Origin: Nostoc sp. PCC 7120 = FACHB-418
GTDB taxonomy: Bacteria > Cyanobacteriota > Cyanobacteriia > Cyanobacteriales > Nostocaceae
DNA: 32,000 bases
Direction: 5' to 3'
Assembly: GCF_000009705.1 (NCBI RefSeq)
Contig: NC_003276.1
Coordinates: forward strand, 210,001 to 242,000
Below, one piece after another: positions 837 to 24,903 of the stretch. A model generated the notes under the pieces. It was not told where the DNA came from. It worked only from the letters and a program-made list of their open reading frames with translations, and did no database searches. A program made the translations under genes and the position numbers. Each line of letters starts with the position of its first letter. Position 1 is the stretch's first letter.

Positions 837-859
837 ATTGTCAAAGTATTGCTATCTAT

Positions 860-1423: not shown

Positions 1424-1524
1424 ATGTCCGTTGCTGACTCTATTAAAAACTAGCAGTAAAATGTATGTCAATTCAGATACGTAAATAAACAACTTGCTAC
1501 GTATAATCCTAACTTTAGTAGAAA

Positions 1525-1544
1525 TTTTACCAAAATAGGTAAAA
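1525..1544. repeat. Short inverted repeat TTTTACC-aaaata-GGTAAAA; candidate recombinase core-type site
   Basis: Two 7-bp arms with a 6-bp spacer, read directly. TTTACCA recurs at 1555-1561 and 1623-1629. The site lies about 290 bp upstream of the recombinase gene. Function is not established. Confidence 0.25.
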
Positions 1545-1820
1545 AAATTGATGTTTTACCAAACCCAATGTTAGATAAGGGTTTAGGAAAATATCTGAAA
1601 AAATAGTTTATGAAAATGGCACTTTACCAGAACTATTTTTCGCTTGTACAGTTGTGCGGGGATTGTGTGTTAATTGATAGTAGGCTTACTCAGATAAGGA
1701 AACACTTAGTCGAGTGATTGCCTACGGCAAGCGATTACGCCATCGCTACCAGTTGTCATCCAATTGGTGAGAGAATGAGGATCTGGGCTATCTGTTTTTA
1801 TCAGGTAGCTAGTACGGATC

Positions 1821-7343: not shown

Positions 7344-7346
7344 GTC

Positions 7347-8063
7347 ATGAAACCAATCTTGAAGAAACTAACTATTAGTGCAATAGCTTCTGCTACTTTT
7401 GGCAGTTTATTTATTGCTGCACCTAGTTATGGCATCAGCATTAATGATTTTTTTAGTTCCATTGTCTCAGATTTCCAAACTGAGATTTCCAAAATCCAAA
7501 ATGATGCTAAGGAGAAAATTAATATCAGTTGGGCAGGGATTAAAACAGATGCTATCGCCGCAATTGATAGTTCTATCGGACAATTGGGTGCGCCTGATCC
7601 GATTGCTTCGGCTGATAAGTTAAAGGATTCGCTTAAGGATGATTATTCTTATCCTGTCGCTCAAGAGAATGCACAAGAACTAGAGCGTCAACTAACTCTG
7701 GCTTCTGTCAGTAGTGTTGTTAGCAAAGACGGACAACAACAAACTCAAGAAAAAATTGATACTACTGCACAAATCGCCCAGCAAGCGAAAAGTATTGCTG
7801 ATGAGGCTCAGAATATGGATGCCTCTCAAAATGTACTTAAAGCGATCGCTGCTCAGAATGCTTTAGTTGTCTCAATGCTGGCACAGCAACGTACTGATTC
7901 TTTATCTGCCCGACAGGACAGTGCTTACTCTAACCTGATGCTGACACAAGTAGCAGAACACCTTGATTCTCAACGGAAAAAGGAGAACTCCGAAGAAGAT
8001 GGCAGGTTATCTTTAGTGCATGAAGTCATACTTAATGCACGTTTAGATCCTACTTTTAAGTAA
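7347..8063 (+). CDS. Secreted helical protein (VirB5-like position; function uncertain)
   Basis: Signal peptide MKPILKKLTISAIASATFGSLFIAAPSYG. The remainder is Ala/Gln/Ser-rich and looks helical. It is 238 aa and lies between the VirB4-like and VirB6-like genes. Confidence 0.55.
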   Translation: MKPILKKLTISAIASATFGSLFIAAPSYGISINDFFSSIVSDFQTEISKIQNDAKEKINISWAGIKTDAIAAIDSSIGQLGAPDPIASADKLKDSLKDDYSYPVAQENAQELERQLTLASVSSVVSKDGQQQTQEKIDTTAQIAQQAKSIADEAQNMDASQNVLKAIAAQNALVVSMLAQQRTDSLSARQDSAYSNLMLTQVAEHLDSQRKKENSEEDGRLSLVHEVILNARLDPTFK

Positions 8064-8072
8064 GAGTTATGG

Positions 8073-8111
8073 GTGCGCGAATGTAAAAAGTTGTTATTAT
8101 CATTCGCGCAC
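8073..8111 (+). terminator. Perfect 11-bp stem-loop immediately after the stop of the 7347-8063 gene (attenuator or mRNA-stabilising hairpin)
   Basis: GTGCGCGAATG (8073-8083) pairs with CATTCGCGCAC (8101-8111) across a 17-nt loop. There is no clear U-tract, so it is not a canonical intrinsic terminator. Confidence 0.4.
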
Positions 8112-8127
8112 TATATCTACTGCAATT

Positions 8128-9279
8128 TTGTATTTTCAAAAACAGGTATTTAGGAAAGTTTTGAGTATGTACTATTTATTAGCAAAAACAACTGGCGGAC
8201 AACTAGCAACTGAAGCAAACAATAATGCGATTGCTGTTGCCCAAGGATTTAACGAATTGTGGGAGCGAACTATAAGCGGTGAAGTTTACAGAAATATGTG
8301 TACTATTGGCGCTTTATTCGCTGTAGCTACGTTAACATTCTTCATGATTGAATGGACAAAGAAAATGGTGGCGGGGGACGAGCAACGGGCATATACAGAT
8401 TTTATTTGGCCTTTAATAGTTGTAGTTCTACTAAGTAATAATGGAGATGTTCTAGGAAAATCAACTTTAGGAATTAGAAATTATATAAATAATGTCAACA
8501 CATTACTTCTTGGGACTACTGCTGCTGGGCTTGACTTGAGAGAAGCATACGAAAAAGCAATTGGTACTGAAGCAGCGCGTAGTGCAATTGGTGTAACTAT
8601 TAACAGGTGTAAAAATTCTTCATTGAGTCAACAAGAGCAGATAGAATGTCTGAATAAAGCAAAGCAAGACTTAAAAGAGAAATATCCAGATAAATTCGGT
8701 GCTGACGGGCTATTTTCTTGGTTTACTGATGCGATTGATGCTACCGTTGACGCTTTCAAAGATTTCAATGAAGATGTTAAAAACAAGAAAGCCAATGGAC
8801 TAGATTTAATATTCTCTCCCATCAATGGGTTTATCGGCTCTGCCATAACAGACATTATTACTATAATTTTAGTCGGAATGAATGGAGCCTATCAATGGGG
8901 AATTGAATTAACAATGTTAGTAACAGCACTTCTTGGGCCAGTGGCGGTTGGTGGTTCTTTATTACCTTACGGAGCTAAATCTATCTACACTTGGCTAATT
9001 GGCTATTTCACTGTAGGCTTCGGAAAACTTTGTTTTAATATCATTGTAGGATTTGCTGGACAATTAGTCGCTGATTCAAAAACTTATCAACCGATGTTCT
9101 TCCTTTTTACTATCGGTATAATTGCCCCATTTTTAAGTGCAGGTTTAGCGGCTGGTGGGGGAATTGCTGTCCTTACTCAAATTAATAAAGCTGCTGAAAC
9201 TTACAGTAGCATTGCTATTGAAGTTACTAAAGGTATTGTGACTAAAGGTGGTAGTTTAGTCGGGAAAATGGCTAAGTGA
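8128..9279 (+). CDS. Polytopic inner-membrane protein, VirB6/TrbL-like
   Basis: 383 aa with at least 5 hydrophobic segments and a large central soluble loop, in the operon position after the VirB5-like gene. The start is uncertain: TTG at 8128 or ATG at 8167. Confidence 0.55.
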   Translation: MYFQKQVFRKVLSMYYLLAKTTGGQLATEANNNAIAVAQGFNELWERTISGEVYRNMCTIGALFAVATLTFFMIEWTKKMVAGDEQRAYTDFIWPLIVVVLLSNNGDVLGKSTLGIRNYINNVNTLLLGTTAAGLDLREAYEKAIGTEAARSAIGVTINRCKNSSLSQQEQIECLNKAKQDLKEKYPDKFGADGLFSWFTDAIDATVDAFKDFNEDVKNKKANGLDLIFSPINGFIGSAITDIITIILVGMNGAYQWGIELTMLVTALLGPVAVGGSLLPYGAKSIYTWLIGYFTVGFGKLCFNIIVGFAGQLVADSKTYQPMFFLFTIGIIAPFLSAGLAAGGGIAVLTQINKAAETYSSIAIEVTKGIVTKGGSLVGKMAK

Positions 9280-9390
9280 GCCTAGAAAATTAACTGCTTT
9301 ACAAATACGAACTGCATAGCTTGCTTCCTTAAAGGGGTACTGCTAATTGTGAATTAATGTTACCCCTACTCTCTACAACTTGTTTCTTAT

Positions 9391-10185
9391 ATGCTGAATC
9401 TTAAAAAAGCCTCTTCTAGCAAGAAAGAGCCGTTGCAACTGCTTAGTTATAACAAATATGTCACAACTAGAGTAGGCATAATTTCTTTAGCTGGATTCTC
9501 AATGGCGGCGTTATCTCTAATTTTACAGTTTCTCAATTATGGTGCGATTTCTTCCTTAAATAAAAAACAAATAGCTCTGGTACAATTATCGTCAGGAGAT
9601 ACAATTACCGCCAGAGCAGTAGACCCAAAGCAACGGTCTGATGAAGTCATCAAAAAGTTTGTCTCAGACACATTCATCAAGATGTTTAACTGGGATGGTT
9701 TAATACAAACCTTCAACGAGAAGGGCGAACCCATCACAAAGCAGGATACTGGGATAGAAGTAGGCAGAATTGATAATAAATCTAATAGTCGAGTGGCTGA
9801 AAAAGCTTACAATGCTGCTTTTGCTTTGAGTGAAAACGGAGGATTCAGAGCCGCATTTCTGAAGAAGTTAGCATCAATCACTCCTAATGGATCATTTAAT
9901 GGAGAATCACAAGTATCTTTAATCCCTAGATTTATTTCTAACCCACGCCAAATTAGAGAAGGCAAGTGGGAGATAGATTTTATTGGGACGTTAGTAACTT
10001 TTGACCGGGAAGATAACTCTGGTCGAGGAATTGCTTTTAATAAAACCATCACAGTTTCATCAATTTCTAATCCAGAATATATCCCAGCTAATACTAGTGA
10101 ACTGTCTAAGAAAATTTATTTGGCAAGGAAAGCCGGATTAGAAATTACCGAAATTGTCGATTTAGATTTGGGTAAAAGAAAATGA
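9391..10185 (+). CDS. Bitopic membrane protein, DotI/IcmL- or VirB8-like
   Basis: One N-terminal TM segment (IISLAGFSMAALSLILQFL) followed by a periplasmic domain of about 200 aa. EVIKKFVSDTFIKMFNWDG ... GGFRAAFLKKL ... REGKWEIDFIGTLVTF resembles DotI/IcmL-type patterns from memory. Confidence 0.5.
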   Translation: MLNLKKASSSKKEPLQLLSYNKYVTTRVGIISLAGFSMAALSLILQFLNYGAISSLNKKQIALVQLSSGDTITARAVDPKQRSDEVIKKFVSDTFIKMFNWDGLIQTFNEKGEPITKQDTGIEVGRIDNKSNSRVAEKAYNAAFALSENGGFRAAFLKKLASITPNGSFNGESQVSLIPRFISNPRQIREGKWEIDFIGTLVTFDREDNSGRGIAFNKTITVSSISNPEYIPANTSELSKKIYLARKAGLEITEIVDLDLGKRK

Positions 10186-11723
10186 GTATAGACAATAATA
10201 AAAATGGTTCAGGAGCGACTTTAGAGGACTTGCTTCATATCGATGATGCTAGTAGTAAAACTAATGGAAATAAAGCGCCAGAGCTAGAAAGTTTGTTAGT
10301 GCCTACTAAGCATACATTTGTCACTTCTCCTTGGTCAAGACTGGCAATAATCGCCGTCCCTTTTGGAGTGGGATTTTTAGCTATATTTTTGATGCTCAAT
10401 GGTATTTTTAATCCCGCACCAGCGCCAAAAATTGCCGAAAAAGAGTCAGAAACAACAACTACTACTGAACAAGCCCAACAAACTGAAGAAAGCGATGGTG
10501 ATGCCCGTGCAAAACTCGCTCTGTCTGAACAAGCCAACGAGTTAGGCAGGGTCAACGACAAAAATAAACAACCAGTACAAGTGTCCAAAACCGAAAAGGT
10601 TGTACCATCCACGCCGCCGTCGCCACGTCCTGCACCTCAACCTGTTCAGACCTCACAACCACGCCTTGTACCTCGAACTGCACCACAACCGATTAGAACC
10701 TACACACCACAAACACGGACTAGTTTTTCTCCTAGACCTTCTATCTCTGCATCTGCTCGGACAGTAACGCCCATAGATCCCATCGAACAACTTAACAAAC
10801 TTCGCACCATCGGGTCTTACGGCAAAATCGCTTATGGCGAAACTAGCACTAATGACCATTCTTCATTAGACCCAGCACAAAATTTACCTAATCAACCAGA
10901 TGAGCCAACTGATTTCAATAATGTCAGCAACAATCCTGTCCTTGAAACCACACCGTCCCCTTCACCGGACTCTATTGAAAAGATCCGCCCCCGGTGGCAA
11001 GCCCAACCTCAAGCTAAGTCGGATAAATATTTAGACCAGGAAAGCCAAATCATTCAGGGAAAACAAACTCGCTACCTCACCGTTGGTACTTTTGCTAGTG
11101 GTGTTCTTGTTACACCCTTAGTTCAAGCCACAGTTAATAGCTCAGTCCAGCAACAAACACCAACCCCTGATACTAGGTCGGTCGTTAGATTAACTCAAGA
11201 TTTACGCGATAACTATGGGCAGGTGGCAATACAGACGGGAACTTTATTAGCGGTAGAACTAGTTTCGGTTGACGGCGGTAGTGTAGCGATCGCTCATGTT
11301 CGGGCGATTATCAAAGATAATACCGAGTACCCTATTTCGACTGGTGCGATATCTGTGACTGGAGAAGGTGGCAGACCTTTAATCGCCAATAAACTTCAAG
11401 ACAGGGGTGGCGAGATTGCCCGTAATGACTTGTTCGGTGGTGCTGTATCTGCATTGGGAAAAGTCGGAGAGGTGATTAATCAACCGGATAATGAAGAAGA
11501 AATTGAGGATGAATTTACGGGCAGGATTCGACGGCGCAGCAGTGGCAATCGTCGCAATATTACTGGTGCATTACTCGAAGGGTTTTTTGGTCAAGTTAGC
11601 CAGAACGTCAGCCAACGCAATCAACGTGCTACCCAAGAAATTAATTCTCGCCCAAATGCTTGGTATATCGGGGCGGGTACTAAAGTGACCATTACAGTTA
11701 ATCGCTCATTGGAGTTGCCATGA
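10182..11723 (+). CDS. VirB10/TrbI-like T4SS protein
   Basis: N-terminal TM segment (LAIIAVPFGVGFLAIFLML), a long Pro-rich linker (PSTPPSPRPAPQPVQTSQPRLVPRTAPQP) and a C-terminal domain ending GAGTKVTITVNRSLELP. ATGA overlap with the upstream gene. Confidence 0.65.
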   Translation: MSIDNNKNGSGATLEDLLHIDDASSKTNGNKAPELESLLVPTKHTFVTSPWSRLAIIAVPFGVGFLAIFLMLNGIFNPAPAPKIAEKESETTTTTEQAQQTEESDGDARAKLALSEQANELGRVNDKNKQPVQVSKTEKVVPSTPPSPRPAPQPVQTSQPRLVPRTAPQPIRTYTPQTRTSFSPRPSISASARTVTPIDPIEQLNKLRTIGSYGKIAYGETSTNDHSSLDPAQNLPNQPDEPTDFNNVSNNPVLETTPSPSPDSIEKIRPRWQAQPQAKSDKYLDQESQIIQGKQTRYLTVGTFASGVLVTPLVQATVNSSVQQQTPTPDTRSVVRLTQDLRDNYGQVAIQTGTLLAVELVSVDGGSVAIAHVRAIIKDNTEYPISTGAISVTGEGGRPLIANKLQDRGGEIARNDLFGGAVSALGKVGEVINQPDNEEEIEDEFTGRIRRRSSGNRRNITGALLEGFFGQVSQNVSQRNQRATQEINSRPNAWYIGAGTKVTITVNRSLELP

Positions 11724-13655: not shown

Positions 13656-15425
13656 ATGAGCCAGTCTTTTAAAACAAATAGTGCTAAAAATCAGCAATTT
13701 AGTTTTGAGCAATTGCAAAATCCTGATAATGCAATTGGCAAGTACACTCACCACTTATTTACCCCCAATGGTTTAACAGTTCTATCCTTGCTCGGCGCTT
13801 ATATTCTCATGAGGGTATTTTTTGGCGACTCTAACAAGAAGAAGATTGCTACTTCTTATTGGGGTGGGGCCAAGGAAACGACGGCGGCTAAGAAAAAGGC
13901 GAAGAAACAAATCGCCAATCCTCAATGTGATAGTGCGGCACTTTACATTGGTAAGCATCAGGATAAAGGCGATGGCACTACTTTCTATATCCCTGATGTG
14001 CAACGGGGTACGGCTGTCATCGGCGCTCCAGGTAGTGGTAAAACATTCTCTGCCATCAACCCGATGATTTACTCGGCTATTGATCAGGGGTTTCCATGTA
14101 TAGTTTATGACTTTAAGTATCCGTCACAAGCGAGAGTTGCTGCTTATGCCAAGTACAAGGGCTATGATGTGCATATCTTTGCACCCGGATTTCCTGAATC
14201 TGAAGTTTGCAATCCTTTAGATTTCCTCAAAGACAGTAGTGATGCTGAAACTGCCCGACAAATTTCAACTGTGATCAATAAGAATTTTCGACTTTTGGGC
14301 AATTCAACTGAAGATGGGTTCTTTGGCCCTTCAGGGGATCAGCTGACTCAAGCAATACTGATGTTAGCTAAAGAGTTCGGTCAATTTGCAGATGTTATGA
14401 CTTGCGCCGCGATACTTTCAAGCGAACACATGGTCAAACGCCTCATGGCTGCTTCTCTCAATCCTTGGGTAAAAATTGCCTTTGGACAACTGTTCAGTTC
14501 TGCTGCATCTGAAAAGACTGTTGCCGGGATTGTCGCTACTGCCAGTATTATGTTTACCCGATTCATGGCGAAAAACACATTAGGCTGCTTTATCGGCAAG
14601 ACAACTTTACCTCTAGAAATTAAAGGTAAGCAAATGATTATCTTTGGGTTGGATAGAGAACGTCGGGATGCTGTAGGGCCTCTCATGACTTCAATCTTAC
14701 ACATGACCATCGCCCGTAACATTGCCAAAAAACGAAAAGACCCACTCATCGTTGCACTGGACGAATTACCCTCAATTTATTTACCTGACTTATATCGGTG
14801 GCTCAACGAATCCCGTTCTGAGGGCTTCTGTGGTATTATCGGCTTCCAAAATATGGGTCAGCTTGAGAAGAATTATGGTAAAGAAGTTGCCAAGGCTATC
14901 CTTGGTGCTTGCAGTTCTAAATTCATTTTTAATCCTGGTGAAAATGAATCAGCGCAATTATTCTCTAGCTTTTTGGGTGATGAAGAAATTAAGTATAAAC
15001 AGAAAAGCCGTTCTAGTGGTAGTAAAAATAATAGCACCTCTATTAGTGACCAAGAAAAAACTAGAAGGCTTTTTGAATCGGCGCAATTTCTCAAACTTAT
15101 TGCTGGTAAATGTGTTTTCATTAATCCGGCATACGCTAATAAAAATGAGGGTTCTGTTCCACTGCTAAAGACTATTAAGATATCTGTGCCTCTCAAAAAT
15201 ATTGATAAATATAATCAACTTAAATGGGTGAGAATCGTTAGTTTAGCAGCTAGGAAGAGTACGCAGAAATTTCCTTCTCAGCAAGATTTAGCTTTACGGA
15301 TGAATCTTGTTGAATCTCGCTTCCCCATTCCCGAAAACCCTCAAGCTATTTCTCCTAATCCTGCTCTGACAGCAAAAGATGTTCATGGCATGGTCAACAC
15401 AGTTCATCCTGATAGTGGGTTGTAA
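13656..15425 (+). CDS. virD4: Type IV coupling protein (VirD4/TraG family)
   Basis: N-terminal TM segment, Walker A GAPGSGKT (nt 14022-14045), Walker B-like IVALDELPS, and GFQNMGQLEKNYGKE, which is typical of the TraG/VirD4 Q..QL...YG motif. Confidence 0.88.
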   Translation: MSQSFKTNSAKNQQFSFEQLQNPDNAIGKYTHHLFTPNGLTVLSLLGAYILMRVFFGDSNKKKIATSYWGGAKETTAAKKKAKKQIANPQCDSAALYIGKHQDKGDGTTFYIPDVQRGTAVIGAPGSGKTFSAINPMIYSAIDQGFPCIVYDFKYPSQARVAAYAKYKGYDVHIFAPGFPESEVCNPLDFLKDSSDAETARQISTVINKNFRLLGNSTEDGFFGPSGDQLTQAILMLAKEFGQFADVMTCAAILSSEHMVKRLMAASLNPWVKIAFGQLFSSAASEKTVAGIVATASIMFTRFMAKNTLGCFIGKTTLPLEIKGKQMIIFGLDRERRDAVGPLMTSILHMTIARNIAKKRKDPLIVALDELPSIYLPDLYRWLNESRSEGFCGIIGFQNMGQLEKNYGKEVAKAILGACSSKFIFNPGENESAQLFSSFLGDEEIKYKQKSRSSGSKNNSTSISDQEKTRRLFESAQFLKLIAGKCVFINPAYANKNEGSVPLLKTIKISVPLKNIDKYNQLKWVRIVSLAARKSTQKFPSQQDLALRMNLVESRFPIPENPQAISPNPALTAKDVHGMVNTVHPDSGL

Positions 15426-15430
15426 TAATT

Positions 15431-15922
15431 ATGAAAATGACTATTGAAGAATTAAAGATTGATAATTTTGATGTGATTGAAATATTATCCCAAAACCATG
15501 TTTTAGCAAATGGGAGCTTTATTGATATTAATCTGCCTCCTTTGAAAATTATTCAAGAATTTCATACTTTATCTGAAGCTCGACCAAAAATTAAAAATTT
15601 GGGCATCTATACTCTCATCAGTCTAAAAAATGTTTATATTCACCTGAATCAAGAATCTTGCTGGAAAATTGTTAGTCAATATATTTATGGTATTGGTTGG
15701 CATGATTTACAATATATTTGCTTTTTAGATATTCAAAATAGCAATATCAATATACATATTATTTTTAATCGTGTTACACCAGAAGGTAAGCTCATCGACA
15801 TTAAATGCGTCGGGGCTAACTGGCAGCAATATGAGATCCTGCGTCAATCTTGTTCTCTTGTCATCGATAACCCTGTTCATAACAAATATTTGCAAAGACG
15901 ATTTTGTAACTGTTGTCCTTAA
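15431..15922 (+). CDS. Small relaxase-fold (MobA/VirD2-like) protein with degenerate catalytic motifs
   Basis: IYTLISL ... WHDLQYICFLDIQNSNINIHIIFNRVTPEGK (nt 15743-15790 for NINIH..GK) parallels relaxase motifs II-III (h.i.Sf ... HtDtd..H.HivinRv.p.tGk). Only one of the three His is retained, there is no Tyr in the first 59 aa, and the protein is only 163 aa. Confidence 0.45.
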   Translation: MKMTIEELKIDNFDVIEILSQNHVLANGSFIDINLPPLKIIQEFHTLSEARPKIKNLGIYTLISLKNVYIHLNQESCWKIVSQYIYGIGWHDLQYICFLDIQNSNINIHIIFNRVTPEGKLIDIKCVGANWQQYEILRQSCSLVIDNPVHNKYLQRRFCNCCP

Positions 15923-15924
15923 AT

Positions 15925-15991
15925 CAGTTATCAGTTATCAGTGAACAGTGACCAGTTACGAGTTCTGCTCACTGGTCACTGTTCACTGTTA
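15925..15991. repeat. STRR-like heptamer array forming a perfect 18-bp hairpin
   Basis: CAGTTAT CAGTTAT CAGTGAA CAGTGAC CAGTTAC (15925-15959). The inverted units ACTGGTC ACTGTTC ACTGTTA lie at 15971-15991. The stem is 15939-15956 paired with 15971-15988, with a 14-nt loop. Confidence 0.85.
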
Positions 15992-16045: not shown

Positions 16046-19000
16046 ATGTTTGATGAAAGACATTTGCAACTAACTTCTGCTTACGCTTATAGTAGTAAGT
16101 ATTTTATCCGTACTGTCATTTATCCTTTAGCCAAATATATTGATAAATATCTTCAGCAAAAAGCTGAAGATTCTATCAATAAAAAGTTATATTGGGAGAC
16201 TGGTAAACAAACTTATGCTATGAGTCAAGATGGCAATGGTGGCTGGAAATGGGAAAAGTATGATCCAACAGCTAACAAGTTTGTATCTCCACCTATGGAC
16301 GAACAGGGACATACCGCTTCAACATTTGCGGAAGCTGTATCTCACGACCTAAATAAAACTGCTTCATCCTCCACTGTGATAGATAACAATACAACTGATT
16401 CTATTACTCAACCGATAAAAGCTCAAACTGAAGAAATCAATTCTCTTGCCAAATCTTCAGGTCTAAAAATTCAAACTGACAATCAAACCTTTGTTACCTA
16501 TCTCAAAACTAATGGCAAAATTGGCTTTTCACTAATTGATGAGCAAACTAACAAGATAGTTGCCGACCAAGAGTTTATTACCCAACTGCAAATAGATGTT
16601 AATAAATATTTATCCGAATGTTTTCAAACATTAGCAATTAATCCAGAAACCTTAAACGAAGATATTTATAATTCTTTAAAAGATTGTTTAACTAGCTTTT
16701 TATCACCCCAGACACCAACTATTGCCAAAAAAGACAATCAAATTGAAAATAGCGAGGTGAACCAATTAAAAAAAGACATTACTCAAGATATTCCCCAGTC
16801 CCCCGAACATATAGATCCACCGCATTGGCAAGAACTAGTAGTCGGTAGTGCGATCGCTCCTGGCATTGCCTCCATGAATTTTGAATCTTTGCACTTTAAT
16901 CAGGCAAGAGGAGTACATGAAGCGTGGGATTTATTGATGACCAGCGACAAAATACCACGTACAAATACGGGTAGAGTCTCTGGAGGAATATTAAAAGCAT
17001 ATTCCTATTTAGATAATACAGATGGCTGGTGGTGTAATGCTGGCATAGATCCCAGACATTTTCAAAATTTAACCCCTGGTGAAACTGCCAACACTAAAGA
17101 ATGGGGGTGTTATAAACCAGATAAGCCAAGACCGAAAACCGAGAAAAAAGATGGGTTAAGTCTAGTGGTTCCGGGTAAATTCACCAAATATGAACATCCA
17201 CTAGGCACTGAAAAAAGTATTTTTTTGTTAGATGTCCCAGACAAGATTGCCCAAAATATTTACTCAAAGGCTGGAGTAAACCCCACAGATAGCGAGCGCA
17301 CAAGTGGATTTTGGTATTGCGTATGGAAACATAATATTCCTGTCACAATTACTGAGGGTGCAAAGAAAGCGGCTAGTCTGTTAAGCCAAGGTCATGCTGC
17401 CATTGGGTTAGCGGGAATTAACGGCGGCTACTATAAAACTAAGAAACTGGAAAATCCCATTGACAATGAAATTAAACCCAATGTTACTGAATCCGATGCT
17501 GTAATTGAATTACTGGAAATTGAGTCCGACGAAGTTGAGGTGGTTGATGAAAATCAAGCAGACAACGCTCAACCTCAAGGTCATCCTACTCACTTTTTGC
17601 ATCCTGAGTTAGCAGTTTTTGCCACAAAGGGGCGAGACTTCAAAATCTGCTTTGACTTTGACACTAAACCTGAAACCAAAAGAAATGTTGATGCTGCCAC
17701 CTTACGTACTGGACAATTACTAGAGGCGACTGGTGGCAAGGTGAGTGTCATTTCTCTACCAGGGCCAGATAAAGGTGTAGATGATTTTATTGTCGAGAGA
17801 GGGCGTGAAGCTTTTGACCAATTGCTTGCCCAATCCTTACCCTTAGAACAATGGAATGATAAGTGCCATCTAGAATTACGCTCAACTATCAAGCTCAAAG
17901 ATGGCACAACCAAGACCGTAGGGGATAAAAATCAGACTGTGGCAATCTCACAGGATAATGTCGCCCTCCAAACACCAATTAACCAATCTCCGCAAGAAAA
18001 TTTAATTGCTCAAATACTTTCGGAGCCTGTTGATCTACCAGCACAACAAAATAAATCTCCTGATGAAAGTCCCAAAATACCTGCATCTGAATTAAATATT
18101 TCGCCATGTAATTTTCAAATTGAAACTTCTTCACCGTCTGCCGAATCTAGTCAATTACAACATCAATCTACCCAGAAAAATACTCATCCTTCATCACTAG
18201 CTCAATCAAAACAACAGCAATCTAACAACAATGCTGCCCCTCACTCTCAACAACAGCAATCTCCACCATCTAATACTACAAATATGCACTCCTCTTCAAC
18301 CAATTCCACAACCCAAAACCAACAAATTCCTCAGCAACAAGAAACTGATGATAAGCGAAGTTGGTTTCCTTGGAAGAGAAAACCAATTATGGAAACTCCT
18401 CTTCCAGAAATTCCTCATTGGGCTAAAACACAGGACGTTACTCTTTATAAACAAAACTTCCAACGACGAAAACTCCACCATCAAGAGAATCAAGCGATCG
18501 CAACTGTAGCTGTGGCGCTCGTCAAGAAATACGGTGTCAAAAACAACGAATCGGGCAAAGAGCTAACTTATGTTGCTGATGCTTTCGTTATTCAAAAAAA
18601 AGGGGAAGATTACACTATTTCCCGTCGCCACGATGGTAAGGAGTTGATGAGCTTCATGGCGGATCGTTGGGGTGGAGTGAACAGAGTCAATCTAGGTCAA
18701 GACTTTAATACCAAAAATTACCCCATTAATATCCTACCTATTGAAAGACAAGAATTTTTATTAGTTGCTGACCACCTCAAAGGGGGTAAAGAATTACCAT
18801 CACTTGATGATGACCCACGCAAGCTTGCTTCTGTCTTGAGTTCGGTTTCACCTAGCGGCACACACAATATTTTAGAAAATTTTAAGCAATCCCAACTGTT
18901 GCAAATCATGATGGGAACTATCCGCAATTTTGAGAAAGACGACTTAACTTTAGCTAATTACCGCATTCTTTTTCGGCAAGGCACAGGCGGAAAATCTACA

Positions 19001-19729
19001 CTACAGTTATTCAAAGCTGAACAAAATGGTCTGATTACAAGGGAAGCTGTTCGGTTTGAATTTGAGCGTACTCCAACTGGTATGACTCATCAAGTTAAAA
19101 AAATGGCCATCAATGAAGCTGACTTGGAAAAGTTAAGTTTGCTAGCACAGAAACTACATATTAATTACAAAGCTTTGTTTGGCGACCCCAATACTAGCCG
19201 TGACATTGATTTGCCTATTCACCCTGCCATTAAGAGTCAATTAGATAAATTAACTCCCCCTCAACCTCAAGATCATCCCTCTCCCACCTCTGCATCAGTT
19301 GATTCTTTAATATCAACCAAGCAAGAGAGCAGGGGGAGAGGAGAAGCAGGGGAAGAAATAAGAGCAGGGGGGGATTTTACTAACATTTCCTCCCCAGCCT
19401 CCCCTGCTTCCCCAGCCTCCCCTGATGCGGATCAGTCTTTGTCGGATTTGCTCTCCAAACTAGAAAAGACTGGTAAACTTACTATTGGCGAACAACGTCA
19501 GATTTACCATGAACTACTTATCAAAAGTCAGCTTCAACAAGAAAATAATGGTACAACTGATATTTCCCTTCCTCCCATCAACATAGTTCTTGACGATTTA
19601 ATTAAACAGCGTCAGCTTCTTATTAACGATACTTATTCTGCCAAAGTTGAAGTTGTTTCCCAACAATCTCCACAACAACACACTCCACAACAATCTGTAG
19701 CGACTAATTCACCAGAATTAGAATTTTAA
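16046..19729 (+). CDS. Large DUF3854/Toprim-domain protein (primase-like) with low-complexity linker and unknown C-terminal domains
   Basis: aa 258-600 are paralogous to the N-terminal domain of the 27692-31354 protein: ELVVGSAIAPGI / ELAVGSAIHPSL; TEGAKKAA / CEGEKKAA; FDFD / FDYE; LPGPDKGVDDF / LPGPEKGVDDF. No P-loop seen. Confidence 0.8.
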   Translation: MFDERHLQLTSAYAYSSKYFIRTVIYPLAKYIDKYLQQKAEDSINKKLYWETGKQTYAMSQDGNGGWKWEKYDPTANKFVSPPMDEQGHTASTFAEAVSHDLNKTASSSTVIDNNTTDSITQPIKAQTEEINSLAKSSGLKIQTDNQTFVTYLKTNGKIGFSLIDEQTNKIVADQEFITQLQIDVNKYLSECFQTLAINPETLNEDIYNSLKDCLTSFLSPQTPTIAKKDNQIENSEVNQLKKDITQDIPQSPEHIDPPHWQELVVGSAIAPGIASMNFESLHFNQARGVHEAWDLLMTSDKIPRTNTGRVSGGILKAYSYLDNTDGWWCNAGIDPRHFQNLTPGETANTKEWGCYKPDKPRPKTEKKDGLSLVVPGKFTKYEHPLGTEKSIFLLDVPDKIAQNIYSKAGVNPTDSERTSGFWYCVWKHNIPVTITEGAKKAASLLSQGHAAIGLAGINGGYYKTKKLENPIDNEIKPNVTESDAVIELLEIESDEVEVVDENQADNAQPQGHPTHFLHPELAVFATKGRDFKICFDFDTKPETKRNVDAATLRTGQLLEATGGKVSVISLPGPDKGVDDFIVERGREAFDQLLAQSLPLEQWNDKCHLELRSTIKLKDGTTKTVGDKNQTVAISQDNVALQTPINQSPQENLIAQILSEPVDLPAQQNKSPDESPKIPASELNISPCNFQIETSSPSAESSQLQHQSTQKNTHPSSLAQSKQQQSNNNAAPHSQQQQSPPSNTTNMHSSSTNSTTQNQQIPQQQETDDKRSWFPWKRKPIMETPLPEIPHWAKTQDVTLYKQNFQRRKLHHQENQAIATVAVALVKKYGVKNNESGKELTYVADAFVIQKKGEDYTISRRHDGKELMSFMADRWGGVNRVNLGQDFNTKNYPINILPIERQEFLLVADHLKGGKELPSLDDDPRKLASVLSSVSPSGTHNILENFKQSQLLQIMMGTIRNFEKDDLTLANYRILFRQGTGGKSTLQLFKAEQNGLITREAVRFEFERTPTGMTHQVKKMAINEADLEKLSLLAQKLHINYKALFGDPNTSRDIDLPIHPAIKSQLDKLTPPQPQDHPSPTSASVDSLISTKQESRGRGEAGEEIRAGGDFTNISSPASPASPASPDADQSLSDLLSKLEKTGKLTIGEQRQIYHELLIKSQLQQENNGTTDISLPPINIVLDDLIKQRQLLINDTYSAKVEVVSQQSPQQHTPQQSVATNSPELEF
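19329..19424 (+). mobile_element. Small palindromic dispersed-repeat (SDR/MITE-like) insertion, in-frame within the CDS
   Basis: Imperfect hairpin, for example GAAGCAGGGGA 19343-19353 paired with TCCCCTGCTTC 19400-19410. Homologous to 27926-28009 in the same orientation relative to the host gene. Encodes GEAGEEIRAGGDFTNISSPASPASPASP. Confidence 0.6.
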
Positions 19730-19736
19730 TTAACCG

Positions 19737-20537
19737 TTGTTCACCACATTTATGCCTAGCTTAGTATCGTCTTCAATCACTACCATCAACCGCGACAGTG
19801 GACTTTCTGACAACCAACTTGCCTATAGACTAGCGCTGATGATGGAAAAATATCCCCCCTCGCCGTCAATAACCCCAACCCCCGCACTGGACACCACAGA
19901 GCGCGAGAGTATTATGGCCGAGATGAGAAATACTCTATCTCTTACGCAAAATGCTCAAAGTGCTGAAGATTACAGGCAAAGTCTTAAGGAAAAATACCTT
20001 AAAGAGTACGCCCAAAAATTTGGCTTAAATAAATCTGAACAAACAACTGATATATCCAAATCCACAAGAGTTGAAAATTTAATAGCCCAGAAGAAAAAGA
20101 CTTTCTTACAGGAGATATTACAGTCTAAAGAACGCAAGTTACCTTTTGTTGATCACCAAACATCTACACCAAAGCAAAGCGAAAATCATGAGGTTGCTAA
20201 AAAATCTCTTATTCCCGCATTGATGAATATTCTCATGACCAAAGGACAAGACACTATTGGCGGCCGCATTTATGAGGGGATCTCTTATCGACTAAATCTC
20301 ATGATGAGAGAAGGGATGCAACGTCTGACTGTTTGGCGTAAAAGTGATAATCAAACGGCTTTTAGCGCTTATAAAGTTGATAGCAAGGAAGAATACAACG
20401 TTGTACACAATAACCTTTCACCGCAAGAAACACAAAAGCTGATCAATTTCGATATGAGACAGCAGCAGCAGCAACAAAAGTCACCACCACAGCAACAACA
20501 AAACGACCACTCTTCTGACGGCCCAGAGTTGGAATAA
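19737..20537 (+). CDS. Hypothetical protein; its C-terminal tail is paralogous to that of the upstream 1227-aa protein
   Basis: 266 aa, starting at TTG 19737 or ATG 19752. It ends QQQQKSPPQQQQNDHSSDGPELE, whereas the upstream protein ends QQSPQQHTPQQSVATNSPELEF. Confidence 0.55.
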   Translation: MFTTFMPSLVSSSITTINRDSGLSDNQLAYRLALMMEKYPPSPSITPTPALDTTERESIMAEMRNTLSLTQNAQSAEDYRQSLKEKYLKEYAQKFGLNKSEQTTDISKSTRVENLIAQKKKTFLQEILQSKERKLPFVDHQTSTPKQSENHEVAKKSLIPALMNILMTKGQDTIGGRIYEGISYRLNLMMREGMQRLTVWRKSDNQTAFSAYKVDSKEEYNVVHNNLSPQETQKLINFDMRQQQQQQKSPPQQQQNDHSSDGPELE

Positions 20538-20538
20538 A

Positions 20539-20781
20539 CTACTGAAAATAACCTATAAACAACCCCAGGAAATACACACTTATCAAGACATAACGCTTTG
20601 TTACACGCTCAAATTGTGACCAGGGCGAGATAATGACAGCTAATACTATATAAAACAGAGCTTGTAGAAAATCATTGTGTCCCAGTTTGATGATTGCTGC
20701 TATCATCAAAGCCACAAAAATTAGAAACTCCACTGCTGTTTCAATCCTGTCCCACAGTTTCACATCATATAGGTAACGCAT
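20539..20781 (-). CDS. Small (80 aa) multi-TM membrane protein, translationally coupled to the histidine kinase
   Basis: Hydrophobic helices VEFLIFVALMIAAII, ALFYIVLAVIISPW and VLISVYFLGLFIGYF. Its start overlaps the kinase 3' end by 17 nt. Confidence 0.5.
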   Translation of the reverse strand: MRYLYDVKLWDRIETAVEFLIFVALMIAAIIKLGHNDFLQALFYIVLAVIISPWSQFERVTKRYVLISVYFLGLFIGYFQ

Positions 20782-21526
20782 CTTGTCTCCTGGGTGATTT
20801 AGGGGGCATCATACCATCAACCCCATATATCCCGTCATCTTTGTAAGGAAATATGATGGTGAATTTCGTTCCTTGTTTGACTACCGAATCTACTCTCATA
20901 CTCAATCCATGAGCATGAGCCACGCATAAGGCGATGTACAGTCCAAGCCCCATCCCTGATTGATGTAATAAATTGCTATTTGGCGATGGCGTTCCGCCCA
21001 CCGTAGGTGATCGCCATAGTGGAATAAATATATTTGATAGTTGGTCTGTAGCAATTCCTATACCCGTGTCTTCAATTTCGATCACTAAATCATCTTCTTG
21101 ATTAAGCAGTCTTAAAAAGATATCTCCTCGTCTAGTGTACTTAATAGCATTTGTCACTATATTACATAGCATTCTGTCAATACTTATACTGTCACCCCGT
21201 ACTTGCGTTCCATGCTTGTATGATGATTGCGTTTCATAGTGCATTTTCAACGAATGATACTGCGCTATTGGCTGGAATAAAGAAGAAGTTTTTTGTAAAA
21301 AACTCAACATATCAAATTGGGCTAACGCGACTGGTTTCACTTCCCCAGAGACTTTGTTAGCTTCAAGCAAATTCATACCCCGGTCATTAGTATCTCGTAA
21401 GGCCAAGAGAAATGGTCTGATTTCTTCTAGAGAGTATCCATAAGCACCATCAATTAACTGATTTGCAATCAACGATATTCCTTTCAACGAATTTGACACA
21501 TCGTGCAGTAAAGCTAATATATCCAA
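20765..21526 (-). CDS. Sensor-less histidine kinase (DHp + HATPase_c only), possibly N-terminally truncated
   Basis: H-box LLHDVSNSL with the His at residue 8, N-box NIVTNAIKYT, G1 IEDTGIGI, G2 GMGLGLYIA. TTG start with an in-frame TAA 9 nt upstream. No TM or sensor domain. Confidence 0.8.
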   Translation of the reverse strand: MDILALLHDVSNSLKGISLIANQLIDGAYGYSLEEIRPFLLALRDTNDRGMNLLEANKVSGEVKPVALAQFDMLSFLQKTSSLFQPIAQYHSLKMHYETQSSYKHGTQVRGDSISIDRMLCNIVTNAIKYTRRGDIFLRLLNQEDDLVIEIEDTGIGIATDQLSNIFIPLWRSPTVGGTPSPNSNLLHQSGMGLGLYIALCVAHAHGLSMRVDSVVKQGTKFTIIFPYKDDGIYGVDGMMPPKSPRRQDALPI

Positions 21527-21596
21527 CTGTTTGCTTAAAACTTCCTATTGCATAACTATACTACCAGCGAAAGATTGTTATTTTTGCTACTTTTAT

Positions 21597-21616
21597 GACT
21601 GAATGCTAATTCAGTC
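21597..21616. promoter_or_regulatory. 8-4-8 palindrome GACTGAAT-gcta-ATTCAGTC in the kinase/regulator divergent intergenic region
   Basis: Read directly. Location and dyad symmetry suit a dimeric HTH regulator site, but no functional evidence exists. Confidence 0.25.
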
Positions 21617-21825
21617 TAGAAATTTTAGAATCTTTTTATTTTACCCATCAAAAAAATTCATCCAATCCAGTTTTAATCCTAAAAACCTTTCTTCTTCTAT
21701 TTACCAAGAATTTTTCTTACTTGCTTATATTTTATATTTACATACACAAAAAGTAAAATACTTTACCTCAATAACCATGTTATAAATATTTAAGTATCTT
21801 ACAGTCGAAGTAATTAAAACCCTAT

Positions 21826-22482
21826 ATGATTCGATTAGTAATTATTGAGGATGAGGAATTAATCCGACTAGGAATAACTACTGCTATCAATCAACAACCA
21901 GATATGCAAATGGTAGGAATTGCTCGGACTGGTCATCAAGGCATTAAACTCGTTGAGGAATTAGCTCCTGATGTGGTTTTAGTCGATATTGGCTTGCCTG
22001 ACATCTCTGGGGTTGAAGTCATTAAGCAAATCAAAGCCAATACAAGCAACATTAAGATTGTTGTTCTTTCTTCTTATTATGCTCAAAGTATTGTCCAGTC
22101 TGCTTTAAATGTGGGGGCTGATTCTTACATTCTTAAGAAGAATAATGTTCCTCTGATCTTAGAGTCCATTAAAACTACCTTCTACGATTGCAAGTCTTTT
22201 TTAGACCCTGATATTAGCCGACATAATTTTTTTTTCCAACAGAAAATTAAGGGGAAGACTTACCAAGATCATCTTAGTAACACTGAGATGCAAATTATTT
22301 CTTTGATGGCGGCTGGTTTTTCTAATAAGCATATTGCCGAGCAGTTATTCATTACTCAAAGCACTGTCAAAGGGCATATAAACAAGATTTTTGCTAAGTT
22401 AGATGTTGCCGATCGCGTCAATGCTCTGATTGTAGCCAGTAAACTTGGCTACATCGAACAGGATTACCTCAAGGTCAGTTAA
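21826..22482 (+). CDS. NarL/FixJ-family response regulator (REC + LuxR-type HTH)
   Basis: Receiver motifs IIEDEE, VVLVDIGLPD (phospho-acceptor Asp), VVLSS and ILKK. The C-terminal LSNTEMQIISLMAAGFSNKHIAEQLFITQSTVKGHINKIFAKL is a LuxR/GerE HTH. Confidence 0.9.
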   Translation: MIRLVIIEDEELIRLGITTAINQQPDMQMVGIARTGHQGIKLVEELAPDVVLVDIGLPDISGVEVIKQIKANTSNIKIVVLSSYYAQSIVQSALNVGADSYILKKNNVPLILESIKTTFYDCKSFLDPDISRHNFFFQQKIKGKTYQDHLSNTEMQIISLMAAGFSNKHIAEQLFITQSTVKGHINKIFAKLDVADRVNALIVASKLGYIEQDYLKVS

Positions 22483-23079
22483 TTACTCATCTATTTCAAT
22501 CAAGCAATAGCCTTTGATTTTACTCTGCTGTGTTTGGCAAGCTTTAATTAATGCTTGATTTTTCAAGATTATTTCATACATCTGTTGACCCTCTTGGGAC
22601 TTTGCCCATTGGAGAATCTTGAGATCATTACGTGATACTACTACTGACTGATTTGTTCCTAAGTTGGAAACAACATTCCATGTTGTCAATGAACCTAACA
22701 AGGTACTGCCAGCCGCCACTAATCCACACACAAGAGATACTGTCCCTAACCTCCAGCCTCCCTGCACTTTTATATCTGTATTGCTGCTAGGCTTAATGTT
22801 TTTCATCTCATCCCGTACTGCACTAGAGACAACTGTATAGTGCATTTTTTCGGCTGATTGAGTTGTTTTTTCCAGTTTTTGATCTATCATTACCGCCCAA
22901 GCGTCTATCATTGCCTCCGTTCTTGCCTGGAGGTCTATCATCGTTTCTTCATATCTACCTAACGTCGCCATCATCCTGAACATTGGATCATCTGGCGTAA
23001 TTCCTAATTGATATGCGCCTTCAACTATACGTTCTTGTTCTGCAAAGGAATAGCCCTGTAATATGTCTTGTTGCGTCAT
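22483..23079 (-). CDS. Hypothetical bitopic membrane protein (last gene of the ParA-like operon)
   Basis: 198 aa. Helical N-terminal domain, one TM segment (LGTVSLVCGLVAAGSTLLGSL) and a C-terminal part of about 60 aa with two Cys. Its start codon shares 1 nt (23079) with the upstream gene's stop codon. Confidence 0.55.
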   Translation of the reverse strand: MTQQDILQGYSFAEQERIVEGAYQLGITPDDPMFRMMATLGRYEETMIDLQARTEAMIDAWAVMIDQKLEKTTQSAEKMHYTVVSSAVRDEMKNIKPSSNTDIKVQGGWRLGTVSLVCGLVAAGSTLLGSLTTWNVVSNLGTNQSVVVSRNDLKILQWAKSQEGQQMYEIILKNQALIKACQTQQSKIKGYCLIEIDE

Positions 23080-23780
23080 TAATCTAATCCTAAATAACTA
23101 ATAGCCAAGTTGTCCTTTATCACTGAAATCTGAAATTTTTTTATCCATTGATAAATGAAGCTTCTCAAAAATAAAATTAGTGAAATATCGTGACAACATT
23201 CCGAATAAGGCTTCACTAATTTATCCATCATTTGATAATGATTTCGGTGTAGCAATAGTAATTCTATTTCTGTTCCTCCTATTATTGATATCTTTTTTTG
23301 TATTTTCTTATCGTACTCTCTAAATTCTGGAGAGAAATGATAATTCTTAACTACTACATAATTAGCATTATTACTCGCTATTTCTATAATTCGATTTAAG
23401 TAATTTAGGCAATTATTCCTATGAGATATTGGTTGGAGAAATGTTAGCTTCCAGCCAAACCTAACTACTACCTCAAATAAACTAATGCTTTCAATATACT
23501 GACGAATTTTTTCGATATACTGTCCAGGCATATCAATAATAATTATATCTAGCCGAGTATTATTTAATTCATCTATTATTTGGTCAGCCTCATCATTTAA
23601 TAAATTAAAATACTCAATTGGCACTAGATTTTCATAAGCCTTAAATACACCAAAAGTATCTTGGCTGTAAACCTTAGTCCGTTTTCCTTTCAGCATCAGC
23701 ATTTCTAGCAATAATTTGATAACTGTAGACTTCCCTACTCGTGCATCTCCTACGGTTATAATCATTCGTTTTGATGACAT
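23079..23780 (-). CDS. P-loop NTPase, diverged paralog of the upstream ParA/TraL-like protein
   Basis: MIITVGDARVGKST compares with VMITGDKGGVGKST in the neighbour, and ANYVVVKNYHFSPEFREYDKK compares with VDYVIVKNLFYGETEQFTFYDKS. The deviant-Walker-A signature KGG is replaced by ARV. Confidence 0.65.
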   Translation of the reverse strand: MSSKRMIITVGDARVGKSTVIKLLLEMLMLKGKRTKVYSQDTFGVFKAYENLVPIEYFNLLNDEADQIIDELNNTRLDIIIIDMPGQYIEKIRQYIESISLFEVVVRFGWKLTFLQPISHRNNCLNYLNRIIEIASNNANYVVVKNYHFSPEFREYDKKIQKKISIIGGTEIELLLLHRNHYQMMDKLVKPYSECCHDISLILFLRSFIYQWIKKFQISVIKDNLAISYLGLD

Positions 23781-23812
23781 TTTTATTTTCTACTTCTTAT
23801 TTCAATCTGAAT

Positions 23813-23846
23813 CAGAAGTTAGTTTAATTTACTAAACTAACTTCTG
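23813..23846. repeat. Perfect 14-bp inverted repeat between the two P-loop genes
   Basis: CAGAAGTTAGTTTA-atttac-TAAACTAACTTCTG, read directly. No U-tract follows on the coding (minus) strand. Confidence 0.8.
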
Positions 23847-23856
23847 GTTCTTATTT

Positions 23857-24903
23857 CTACTCAGATAAAAACTTTTCTATGCCAAACAAATTCTTAATTG
23901 GTTTTATCTGCCCTTGAAAATTGTTCAGCCAGCTTAATACTCTACCATATATAGACGGATATTCATCTTGTTCAAGTCCTTGCCTAAATGTCATATTATT
24001 CACATCTAAATAGTCGTAAGATTTTTTCGCTAGTTTTGGCATATTTATGTTTGTGAATTTATGCCCTTTGGCTTTTACCCTTGTTTCCATTTCTTTTACT
24101 TCTTTTGATTTATCATAAAAAGTAAATTGTTCTGTCTCTCCATAAAACAAATTTTTTACTATTACATAATCAACATTATCACCGCAGAAACTATACAATT
24201 CCAATAATTGATTTATACAATCAATTATTGTACTTATCACTACTACTATAGTTACCTGCATTTTACATTTATCATTCACTACACCTAAAAAACCCATCTC
24301 TTTTATCAAATTCTCTAATGTAGGCAAAAATTGTGATGGGGTTTCTAACAGTATTAAAGATTGCTCTTTCAGTGCTTTTCCATCTCCTTTAGATTTGGGA
24401 TACACTATCTGTTTTAAATTGTCTAGAAAATCATCCAATTTATCTGAGTTAGATATATCTAAAGGATAGATATCAGCCTTTTCTCCATAAAATCTTATCA
24501 AGTGGGGATTAGAATTATCCGCATCTAATCCGACAAACCCTACTGCATTATCCATGTAAATTTGTGCCAAGCCTCTCGCAAATGTTGACTTGCCAACACC
24601 CCCTTTATCTCCTGTTATCATTACTAATCTTCTTAATTGTTCTGGATTAGTATTTTTATCGTCATTCCCCTTATTACCTGTAGATGCTGGATTTTTAGGC
24701 TTTACTGACTCTGTGATTTTTTCTGTGGGATCGTCAGATGCTGTAACATTTGTTTTTGTACCATTAGCTCTTTGCTCTACTGGCTTATTTGGTGTTATAT
24801 TTTCTGCTCCTGGAGCCTCTGGTGTTGTATTAATAGGAGTATTCTCTGTTGCAGGATTTCCAGTATTTTGCTTATTCTCTGGAAATGTGTGAATAGTTGT
24901 CAT
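23857..24903 (-). CDS. ParA/MinD-superfamily ATPase (TraL/MipZ-like) with a disordered N-terminal extension of about 95 aa
   Basis: Deviant Walker A GDKGGVGKST (nt 24583-24612) followed by GLDADNSNP. The N-terminus is T/N/P/K-rich low complexity. Confidence 0.8.
   Translation of the reverse strand: MTTIHTFPENKQNTGNPATENTPINTTPEAPGAENITPNKPVEQRANGTKTNVTASDDPTEKITESVKPKNPASTGNKGNDDKNTNPEQLRRLVMITGDKGGVGKSTFARGLAQIYMDNAVGFVGLDADNSNPHLIRFYGEKADIYPLDISNSDKLDDFLDNLKQIVYPKSKGDGKALKEQSLILLETPSQFLPTLENLIKEMGFLGVVNDKCKMQVTIVVVISTIIDCINQLLELYSFCGDNVDYVIVKNLFYGETEQFTFYDKSKEVKEMETRVKAKGHKFTNINMPKLAKKSYDYLDVNNMTFRQGLEQDEYPSIYGRVLSWLNNFQGQIKPIKNLFGIEKFLSE

Follow-up and report, generated by a model that had tools for sequence, protein, structure and literature searches.

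The plasmid pCC7120alpha is the model of MPF_C, the cyanobacterial class of mating-pair formation (MPF) systems (Guglielmini et al. 2014, PMC4027160). Its relaxase has been assigned to alr7199 (MOB_V), its virB4 to alr7206 and its virD4 to alr7213 (Popin et al. 2021, PMC8600333), and the cyanobacterial plasmid replication proteins CyRepA1 and CyRepA2 combine a DUF3854 domain with a helicase (PMC10079941). Here, we studied a stretch of 32,000 nucleotides from Nostoc sp. PCC 7120 = FACHB-418 (NC_003276.1, positions 210,001 to 242,000 of the forward strand), hereafter the window, and focused on a small gene at 15431..15922 (+) that encodes a relaxase-like protein of 163 amino acids (aa), hereafter the mini-relaxase or mini-protein. 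The window agrees with the MPF_C model, with a VirB4-like gene (4524-7343) and a TrbI/VirB10 gene (10182-11723), both recognized by Pfam, and with the locus of the type IV coupling protein (T4CP) as published. We consider it probable that the mini-protein is a pseudo-relaxase descended from a PF03432 relaxase domain, kept by selection as a probably non-cutting accessory in one Nostocaceae subclade of MPF_C systems, with a MobV relaxase most likely nicking the origin of transfer (oriT).

A first-pass annotation, made by eye from the sequence of the window, had placed this open reading frame (ORF) directly after the coupling-protein gene and aligned it to relaxase motifs II and III. Both statements were borne out, with a gap of 5 nt between the T4CP stop codon and the mini-relaxase start, and with IYTLISL falling on motif II and NINIHIIFNRV on motif III when the mini-protein was aligned with 10 canonical relaxases. 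The PF03432 profile, which that annotation had proposed as a check, matched residues 37-140 of the mini-protein over profile positions 23-122 of 132 with an E value of 4.2e-9 and 37.2 bits, above the gathering score of 24.6, and PF03432 was already precomputed for most of its close homologs. When a profile of the mini-relaxase family was searched against 1.84 billion representative proteins, about 10 further mini-proteins or fragments (54-226 aa) came out on top, and below them, at E values of 1e-6 to 1e-3, followed mostly canonical relaxases of 170-630 aa carrying HxDxxHxHIH. Among PDB sequences, neither the single sequence nor the family profile picked up a relaxase, the homology being too remote for such searches, and NCBIfam and PHROGs profiles gave no match to the mini-protein; the relationship is visible solely through Pfam, the large profile search and fold comparison.

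An AlphaFold2 model built on a diverse alignment of 60 sequences was predicted with high confidence (pLDDT 90.2, pTM 0.84) and holds the entire relaxase core fold, b1-a1-b2-a2-b3-a3-b4-b5-a4, so that the earlier description of the protein as far shorter than a relaxase domain does not hold. Foldseek ranked the minimal relaxase domain of MobA from R1162 (PDB 2NS6) first with a probability of 0.99 and the NES relaxase domain (4HT4) second with 0.97, followed lower down by pCU1 TraI, the TM-scores being moderate (0.40-0.46). Given the Pfam match above threshold, the remote profile matches and the confident fold match, the mini-protein is a true homolog of the MobA/VirD2-type relaxases of PF03432, which are MOB_P/MOB_Q-like.

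The active site is degenerate in all three motifs. In the 10 canonical relaxases, motif I (F-x-G-x-L-x-Y) carries its Tyr in every case, while the mini-protein reads F13-D-V-I-E-I-L19 and has no counterpart, the Tyr being aligned with L19 or a gap. The corresponding segment, residues 13-23 (F13...L19...H23; 15467..15499, +), forms the predicted helix a1, the canonical site of the nucleophilic Tyr, and no Tyr occurs anywhere in residues 1-59, as the first reading had noted. At motif II, the canonical H-x-S-x-S-(L/F) is represented by Y60-T-L-I-S64-L (15608..15625, +). At motif III, the canonical H-x-D-x-x-H-x-H-x-H-...-N-R-V is represented by F98-L-D100-I-Q102-N-S-N105-I-N107-I-H109-I-I-F-N113-R114-V (15722..15775, +), where the positions of interest read D100/Q102/N105/N107/H109; the canonical relatives have HxH in 10/10 and the first His in 9/10. 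H109 is therefore the only His kept of the HxD...HxH metal site, together with Asp100 at the first-His position, and H109 and the structural N-R pair (N113-R114) are the sole features of motif III retained. The first-pass annotation was thus correct that the His triad is down to a single His (N107-I-H109), but its register was off by one: the His of HxD falls on D100, not on L99, and in the ungapped alignment the Asp of HxD falls on Q102. One relaxase of otherwise canonical form, P0081, likewise has Asp at the first-His position, which suggests that D100 may still be a metal ligand.

We then compared these positions within the family, using 52 genomic and 60 database homologs. Tyr residues around helix a1 are not fixed: they are confined to positions 8, 17 and 23, which differ by clade, and residues 12-26 are free of Tyr in 47 of the 60 database homologs. 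Position 60 is Y in 43/52 genomic homologs, with H, K, R or C in the others; a residue other than the motif-II His stands there in 48/52, and position 64 is S in 24/52, T in 13/52 and varied in the rest. The remaining candidate positions vary as well, with H, K, Y, R or a gap at position 23, D, K, A, Q and others at position 100, Y, E, T, N or Q at position 107 (N in the window), and H, D, E, N or I at position 109. As many as 30 different 100/107/109 triplets occur among the 60 database homologs, no homolog of either set has H/H/H, and a divergent clade carries T-x-N at the HxH positions. On the other hand, F13, Y84, W90, D92, Q94, Y95, N113 and R114 are invariant in the 52 genomic homologs and shared with active relaxases, and F13 and Y95 are at least 90% conserved in the 60-sequence set; the eight residues look structural. 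Such a selective loss of catalytic positions with preservation of the core is, at the level of sequence, the signature of a pseudoenzyme. Because the nucleophilic Tyr and most of the metal-binding site have been lost, the mini-protein most likely cannot nick DNA or attach to it covalently. Measured against PF03432-type membership, it lacks the motif-I Tyr, the motif-II H-x-S-x-S (and with it the motif-II His) and the motif-III triad, and on these residues it should not be classed as a relaxase.

The mini gene has not decayed. In 10 pairwise comparisons of the window with related loci by the Nei-Gojobori method, the ratio of nonsynonymous to synonymous substitution rates (dN/dS) was 0.12-0.18 for the mini gene, similar to the neighbouring type IV secretion system (T4SS) genes (T4CP, 0.04-0.10; orf398, 0.10-0.20; orf266, 0.16-0.26). 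All 113 database homologs of the mini-protein are 96-184 aa long and cyanobacterial, almost all of them from Nostocales, and the ORF is intact across 52 genomic loci; neither frequent frameshifts or stops in the homologs nor a dN/dS near 1 was observed. The protein diverges quickly, with 29-40% identity where T4CP has 70-78%. The low dN/dS, the uniformly short and intact homologs and the fixed synteny described below together indicate that the mini-protein is under purifying selection and is not a pseudogene.

An intact relaxase is encoded on the same replicon. Contigs that are the same as the window to within 0 or 1 mismatch over 10,836 bp, among them the plasmid CP183474.1 of 407,634 bp, reach further upstream and carry, on the same strand, a 568-aa gene, an AAA ATPase gene and then the DUF192 gene at window positions 276-836. 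The 568-aa gene encodes a MobV-DUF3991 relaxase (Mob_Pre + DUF3991) and lies at window coordinates of about -3160 to -1454 (+), that is, 1.5-3.2 kb upstream of position 1. Its product matched Mob_Pre over the whole profile with 124.6 bits and DUF3991 with 77.5 bits in Pfam, passed the NCBIfam MobV equivalog with 175.4 bits (cut-off 100), and has both MobV motifs intact, SASH22TAR (HxxR) and HLDEATPHIH (HxDE..PHxH). The mini-protein itself matched neither the Mob_Pre nor the MobV profiles and showed no similarity to the MobV of its own replicon.

The two genes travel together. All 18 complete PLSDB plasmids encoding the mini-relaxase also encode MobV-DUF3991, 6-20 kb apart, and the identities of the two proteins rise and fall together across these plasmids. 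In two of the 18, both from T. variabilis, an IS630 element interrupts the MobV-DUF3991 gene; on plasmid A (NC_007410.1, 33560-36425), ISAva6 of the IS630 family has divided it into a 395-aa MobV and a 169-aa DUF3991 part, with the mini-relaxase intact. MobV of the same type also occurs alone, without the mini gene, on many small plasmids of 30-60 kb. MOB-suite passes over the mini-protein and types the plasmids that bear it as MOB_V.

These results settle much of what the first-pass annotation had left as options. It had seen no other HUH or relaxase signature in the 32 kb, and Pfam and tblastn likewise found no further relaxase signature within the window; calling the mini-relaxase the only relaxase-like gene of the cluster is therefore right for the window and wrong for the gene cluster, which includes MobV upstream. 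Its suggestion that the real relaxase lies outside the window was correct. The impression of a system without a working relaxase arose because the window ends short of the MobV gene, and the idea of such a system is refuted; since the replicon does carry a canonical relaxase, nothing remains, as that annotation had itself foreseen, of the novelty of a missing one. Nicking of oriT is most likely carried out by the MobV-DUF3991 relaxase (alr7199).

The mini gene occupies a fixed place. The T4CP gene (VirD4/TraG-like; alr7213; 13656..15425, +), whose product matched TrwB_AAD_bind with 94.8, TraG-D_C with 92.8 and T4SS-DNA_transf with 76.5 bits in Pfam, lies directly upstream of it in every locus with flanking DNA, and the next gene is always the one for a 1227-aa DUF3854 protein (16046..19729, +). 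All 52 loci with enough flank share the order orf398 - T4CP - mini - DUF3854 - orf266, down to a mini-protein identity of 29%, and orf266 (266 aa; 19737..20537, +) is the last conserved gene of the block in the synteny table. The mini gene is probably co-transcribed, and possibly translationally coupled, with the T4CP gene. It is markedly AT-rich, with a GC content of 30.5%, whereas the T4CP gene has 41.4% and the whole window 39.9%. Because the gene count from MobV through VirB4 to T4CP fits alr7199/alr7206/alr7213, the mini gene is probably alr7214 and the 1227-aa gene alr7215; our literature search found no paper mentioning either. Mini-proteins of the window's close clade end in a Cys-rich tail (FCNCCP / CNCCS), where the structure prediction is of low confidence. 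In a 226-aa metagenomic protein, P0079, the first 150 residues of a T4CP are fused to the C-terminal half of a divergent mini-relaxase; although probably the result of a deletion or of faulty assembly, it confirms the T4CP-mini adjacency in a distant lineage.

The downstream protein carries its DUF3854 (Toprim-like) segment as an insertion at about residues 246-625 (16781..17920, +; Pfam DUF3854, 134 bits), and this is the portion that co-occurs with the mini-relaxase. Across mini-bearing loci the segment is 44-64% identical, and its Toprim-type acidic residues, E437 (TEGAKKA), D537 (CFDFD) and D579/D580 (GVDDF), are invariant in 45/45 DUF3854 sequences, a set that includes the CyRepA1-family replication protein of the window. 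The helicase part of CyRepA1 is absent from the 1227-aa protein according to NCBIfam.

We further examined seven sister MPF_C plasmids with T4CP identities of 48-70% (A. cylindrica, Chroococcidiopsis, Tolypothrix, Fremyella, Brasilonema, T. variabilis plasmid C and Calothrix). Carriage of the mini gene coincides exactly with a T4CP of at least about 76% identity to that of the window, a group of 18 plasmids. On the seven sister plasmids, a hidden Markov model (HMM) of the mini family, run with all filters off, found no homolog (best E 0.7; positive controls 187-226 bits), and tblastn with residues 246-625 of the 1227-aa protein gave no match at their loci. In 6/7 sister loci, the T4CP gene is followed by one whose product resembles the last 600 aa of the 1227-aa protein; the N-terminus of the latter gave weak matches in 2/7. 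Thus, every mini-bearing locus also has the DUF3854 insertion and the seven sister loci have neither, and this strict co-occurrence, together with the conserved Toprim residues, makes a functional partnership plausible.

Two ideas about the origin and the generality of the mini gene were dropped. There is no support for placing the gene in an ancestral relaxase slot after T4CP, since on the sister plasmids this slot is without a relaxase, and such small ORFs as it contains are unrelated to the mini-protein (hhalign probability at most 0.1%). A role as a general adaptor between MobV and T4CP is weakened by the MobV-type MPF_C plasmids without the mini gene and by MobV alone on many small plasmids. 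As to relaxase type, the sister plasmids A. cylindrica pANACY.02, Chroococcidiopsis pCHRO.01, Fremyella plasmid01 and T. variabilis plasmid C were typed MOB_P, and those of Tolypothrix and Calothrix MOB_V, indicating that the relaxase type has been repeatedly exchanged on this T4SS backbone. In addition, pANACY.02 has a type III-B CRISPR module beside its transfer genes.

Of the three explanations offered by the first-pass annotation, that of a relaxosome accessory pseudo-enzyme is the best supported, in view of the lost catalytic positions, the purifying selection and the strict synteny. In the mechanism we propose, MobV would nick oriT and pilot the strand, and the mini-protein would act without catalysis, through the DNA-binding surface of the relaxase fold or through a protein-protein surface; it may bind single-stranded or hairpin DNA or serve as an adaptor, its presumed partners being the downstream DUF3854 protein and T4CP. 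A more elaborate version, which we regard as rather doubtful, would have the dead relaxase fold and the DUF3854 domain acquired jointly as a two-protein DNA-processing module on T4CP, in which the pseudo-relaxase would recognize the transferred single strand or oriT by sequence or structure and bring into place a catalytically competent Toprim enzyme, either a primase or a nuclease, to prime, terminate or process the strand during conjugation. If so, the pair would represent a split and rewired version of relaxase-primase fusions.

Several points weigh against a non-catalytic accessory of this kind. D100 and H109 are conserved in the window's own clade of at least 70% identity, most members of which have Tyr107 and Tyr60, and a non-canonical metal site or nucleophile may therefore persist there. 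MobV-type MPF_C plasmids of Tolypothrix and Calothrix do without the mini gene, so that it is not generally required for MobV-driven transfer. The DNA-binding or adaptor role and the DUF3854 partnership are proposed from gene order and co-occurrence, and MPF_C is a class in which, according to Guglielmini et al. 2014 (PMC4027160), no experimental work had been done. The first of these points leads to a rival explanation, in which the mini-protein has kept nuclease or relaxase activity through a remodelled site, for example with D100 and H109 binding the metal and Y60, Y107 or H23 acting as the nucleophile, and works as a second relaxase or a strand-termination enzyme. In MOB_V relaxases such as MobM, a His can be the nucleophile; the Tyr60 found in 43/52 genomic homologs, the Asp at the first-His position of P0081 and the purifying selection would also fit. 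However, positions 23, 60, 100, 107 and 109 are unconserved across the family, the window has N at position 107, helix a1 lacks a fixed Tyr, and an intact MobV is always present, and we judge an active mini-protein very unlikely.

It is slightly less likely still, in our estimate, that no HUH relaxase acts and that the adjacent DUF3854/Toprim protein is the oriT nickase, which was the third of the options first offered. Its E437, D537, D579 and D580 are invariant and it always follows T4CP and the mini gene, but with MobV-DUF3991 intact 1.5 kb upstream of the window and on 18/18 related plasmids such a nickase is unnecessary and without direct support. Moreover, sister MPF_C systems lack the DUF3854 segment, which therefore cannot be the general MPF_C nickase, and cyanobacterial DUF3854 is known from replication proteins (CyRepA; PMC10079941). 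That both large neighbours carry DUF3854 and that a replication protein (Rep) is encoded in the same window would fit another idea, in which the mini-protein serves plasmid replication or maintenance instead of transfer, for instance as a partner of the CyRepA1-type Rep at 27692-31354. Against this, the mini gene is fixed beside T4CP and a DUF3854 protein that is not a Rep, and the position of CyRepA1 differs between plasmids, which leaves the idea highly improbable. We give the lowest probability of all to a functionless, decaying remnant of a former relaxase gene. The lost catalytic residues, the AT-rich composition (30.5% GC against 39.9% in the window) and the faster evolution relative to T4CP would be expected of one, but a dN/dS of 0.12-0.18, intact ORFs of similar length at 52 loci and in 113 database proteins, invariant core residues, a fixed position and orientation and a confident fold prediction all speak against decay. 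A selected pseudo-relaxase, with an intact MobV on the same replicon, stays the reading we prefer.

The region around these genes shows several further features. Directly 3' of the mini gene, positions 15923-15988 contain the heptamer repeats CAGTTAT, CAGTGAA and CAGTGAC and a perfect 18-bp inverted repeat (15939-15956 / 15971-15988) that folds into a hairpin at 15939-15988 (-37.8 kcal/mol, z -6.4). We considered this hairpin as a terminator or oriT and rejected it as part of the module, as even locus L006, at 95% identity, lacks it, and so do most of the others. In a few other loci, the intergenic spacer at this place contains unrelated palindromes. The segment 15923-15988 looks like a lineage-specific small palindromic insertion or one of the short tandemly repeated repetitive (STRR) type.

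A second DUF3854 protein, of about 1220 aa, is encoded at 27692-31354 (-) and belongs to the CyRepA1-family plasmid replication proteins (NCBIfam NF042913, 340.6 bits, cut-off 200); two DUF3854 proteins are thus encoded in the window, one of the Rep type and one associated with transfer, with conserved Toprim-like residues common to both. Between the MobV-AAA pair and the T4SS genes lie the DUF192 gene, an Mrr-type restriction endonuclease gene and a tyrosine integrase gene (window 276-2780, and upstream at 6565-9998 in the loci L002 and L004). The MobV-AAA-DUF192 block changes place and orientation relative to the T4SS between plasmids; here it lies upstream of the T4SS, and in T. variabilis, L050, L054 and L055 it follows the T4SS in inverted orientation. 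After the transfer block, a histidine kinase gene (20765-21526, -) is followed by a LuxR-type response regulator gene (21826-22482, +) and then, on the minus strand, by genes for a DUF6753 protein, a P-loop protein and a ParA-like ATPase. This arrangement (20765-24903) also occurs in T. variabilis plasmid A and may be a conserved regulatory and partition module; the same plasmid has a group II intron within its T4SS region.

With regard to annotation, the database label 'relaxase/mobilization nuclease domain-containing' on the mini-protein misleads, as it invites wrong MOB typing and wrong mobility prediction. On its sequence features, it would be better described as a selected, non-catalytic relaxase fold, the real relaxase being MobV. 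That MobV alr7199 is the relaxase of pCC7120alpha was already known (PMC8600333), and no new nicking chemistry is revealed; what remains is the pairing of a pseudo-relaxase with a Toprim-like protein in an unstudied class of conjugation systems. This yields a three-protein hypothesis (T4CP, mini-relaxase and DUF3854 protein) for DNA processing by these plasmids, and it would add an example of a relaxase-derived pseudoenzyme. A literature search for pseudo-, inactive and degenerate relaxases found no description of one conserved in a T4SS operon.

Among known systems, the mini-protein is closest to the PF03432 relaxases of the MOB_P/MOB_Q type, which in canonical form, together with MobC, are abundant on small plasmids of Nostocales, pTCL26-01_F being one example. 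It shares with them a significant profile match, the same order of secondary structures and fold, with MobA of R1162 (2NS6) and NES of pLW1043 (4HT4) as the closest solved structures, and the residues F13, R-P, Y84, G-W/F-x-D-x-Q-Y and N-R-V. Its gene adjoins a coupling-protein gene and has a Toprim-like domain nearby, as in MOB_P-DUF3991 fusions; these hosts commonly combine a relaxase fold with a Toprim-like domain, as in MobV-DUF3991 and in the MOB_P-DUF3991 protein on pTCL26-01_F. Unlike these relaxases, the mini-protein has no motif-I Tyr, only one of the three His at the metal-ligand positions and Tyr for the motif-II His, and these catalytic positions are not conserved within its family. 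It is also only 163 aa long, without a C-terminal domain or a MobC-like partner gene.

The MobV-DUF3991 relaxase (alr7199; MOB_V, Mob_Pre) resembles the mini-relaxase in lying in the same transfer region of the same plasmid, in pairing a relaxase fold with a Toprim-like domain and in being inherited together with the mini gene. However, it belongs to another relaxase family, has the full motif set (H22-x-x-R, HxDE..PHxH), is 568 aa long and occurs alone, without the mini gene, on many small mobilizable plasmids. Relaxosome accessory proteins, namely MobC and ribbon-helix-helix (RHH) proteins such as TraJ, TraY and TrwA, are comparable in the non-catalytic helper role in the transfer region that we propose for the mini-protein, but their fold and ancestry are wholly distinct from its alpha/beta relaxase fold, and the mini-protein gave no match to MobC or RHH families in Pfam and NCBIfam. 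It also differs from them in tracking the T4CP and DUF3854 genes rather than the relaxase gene. Finally, the 1227-aa neighbour shares with CyRepA1 and CyRepA2 the DUF3854 Toprim-like domain and its conserved acidic residues, and differs in lacking the CyRepA1 helicase part, the true CyRepA1 homolog being the separate protein encoded on the minus strand.

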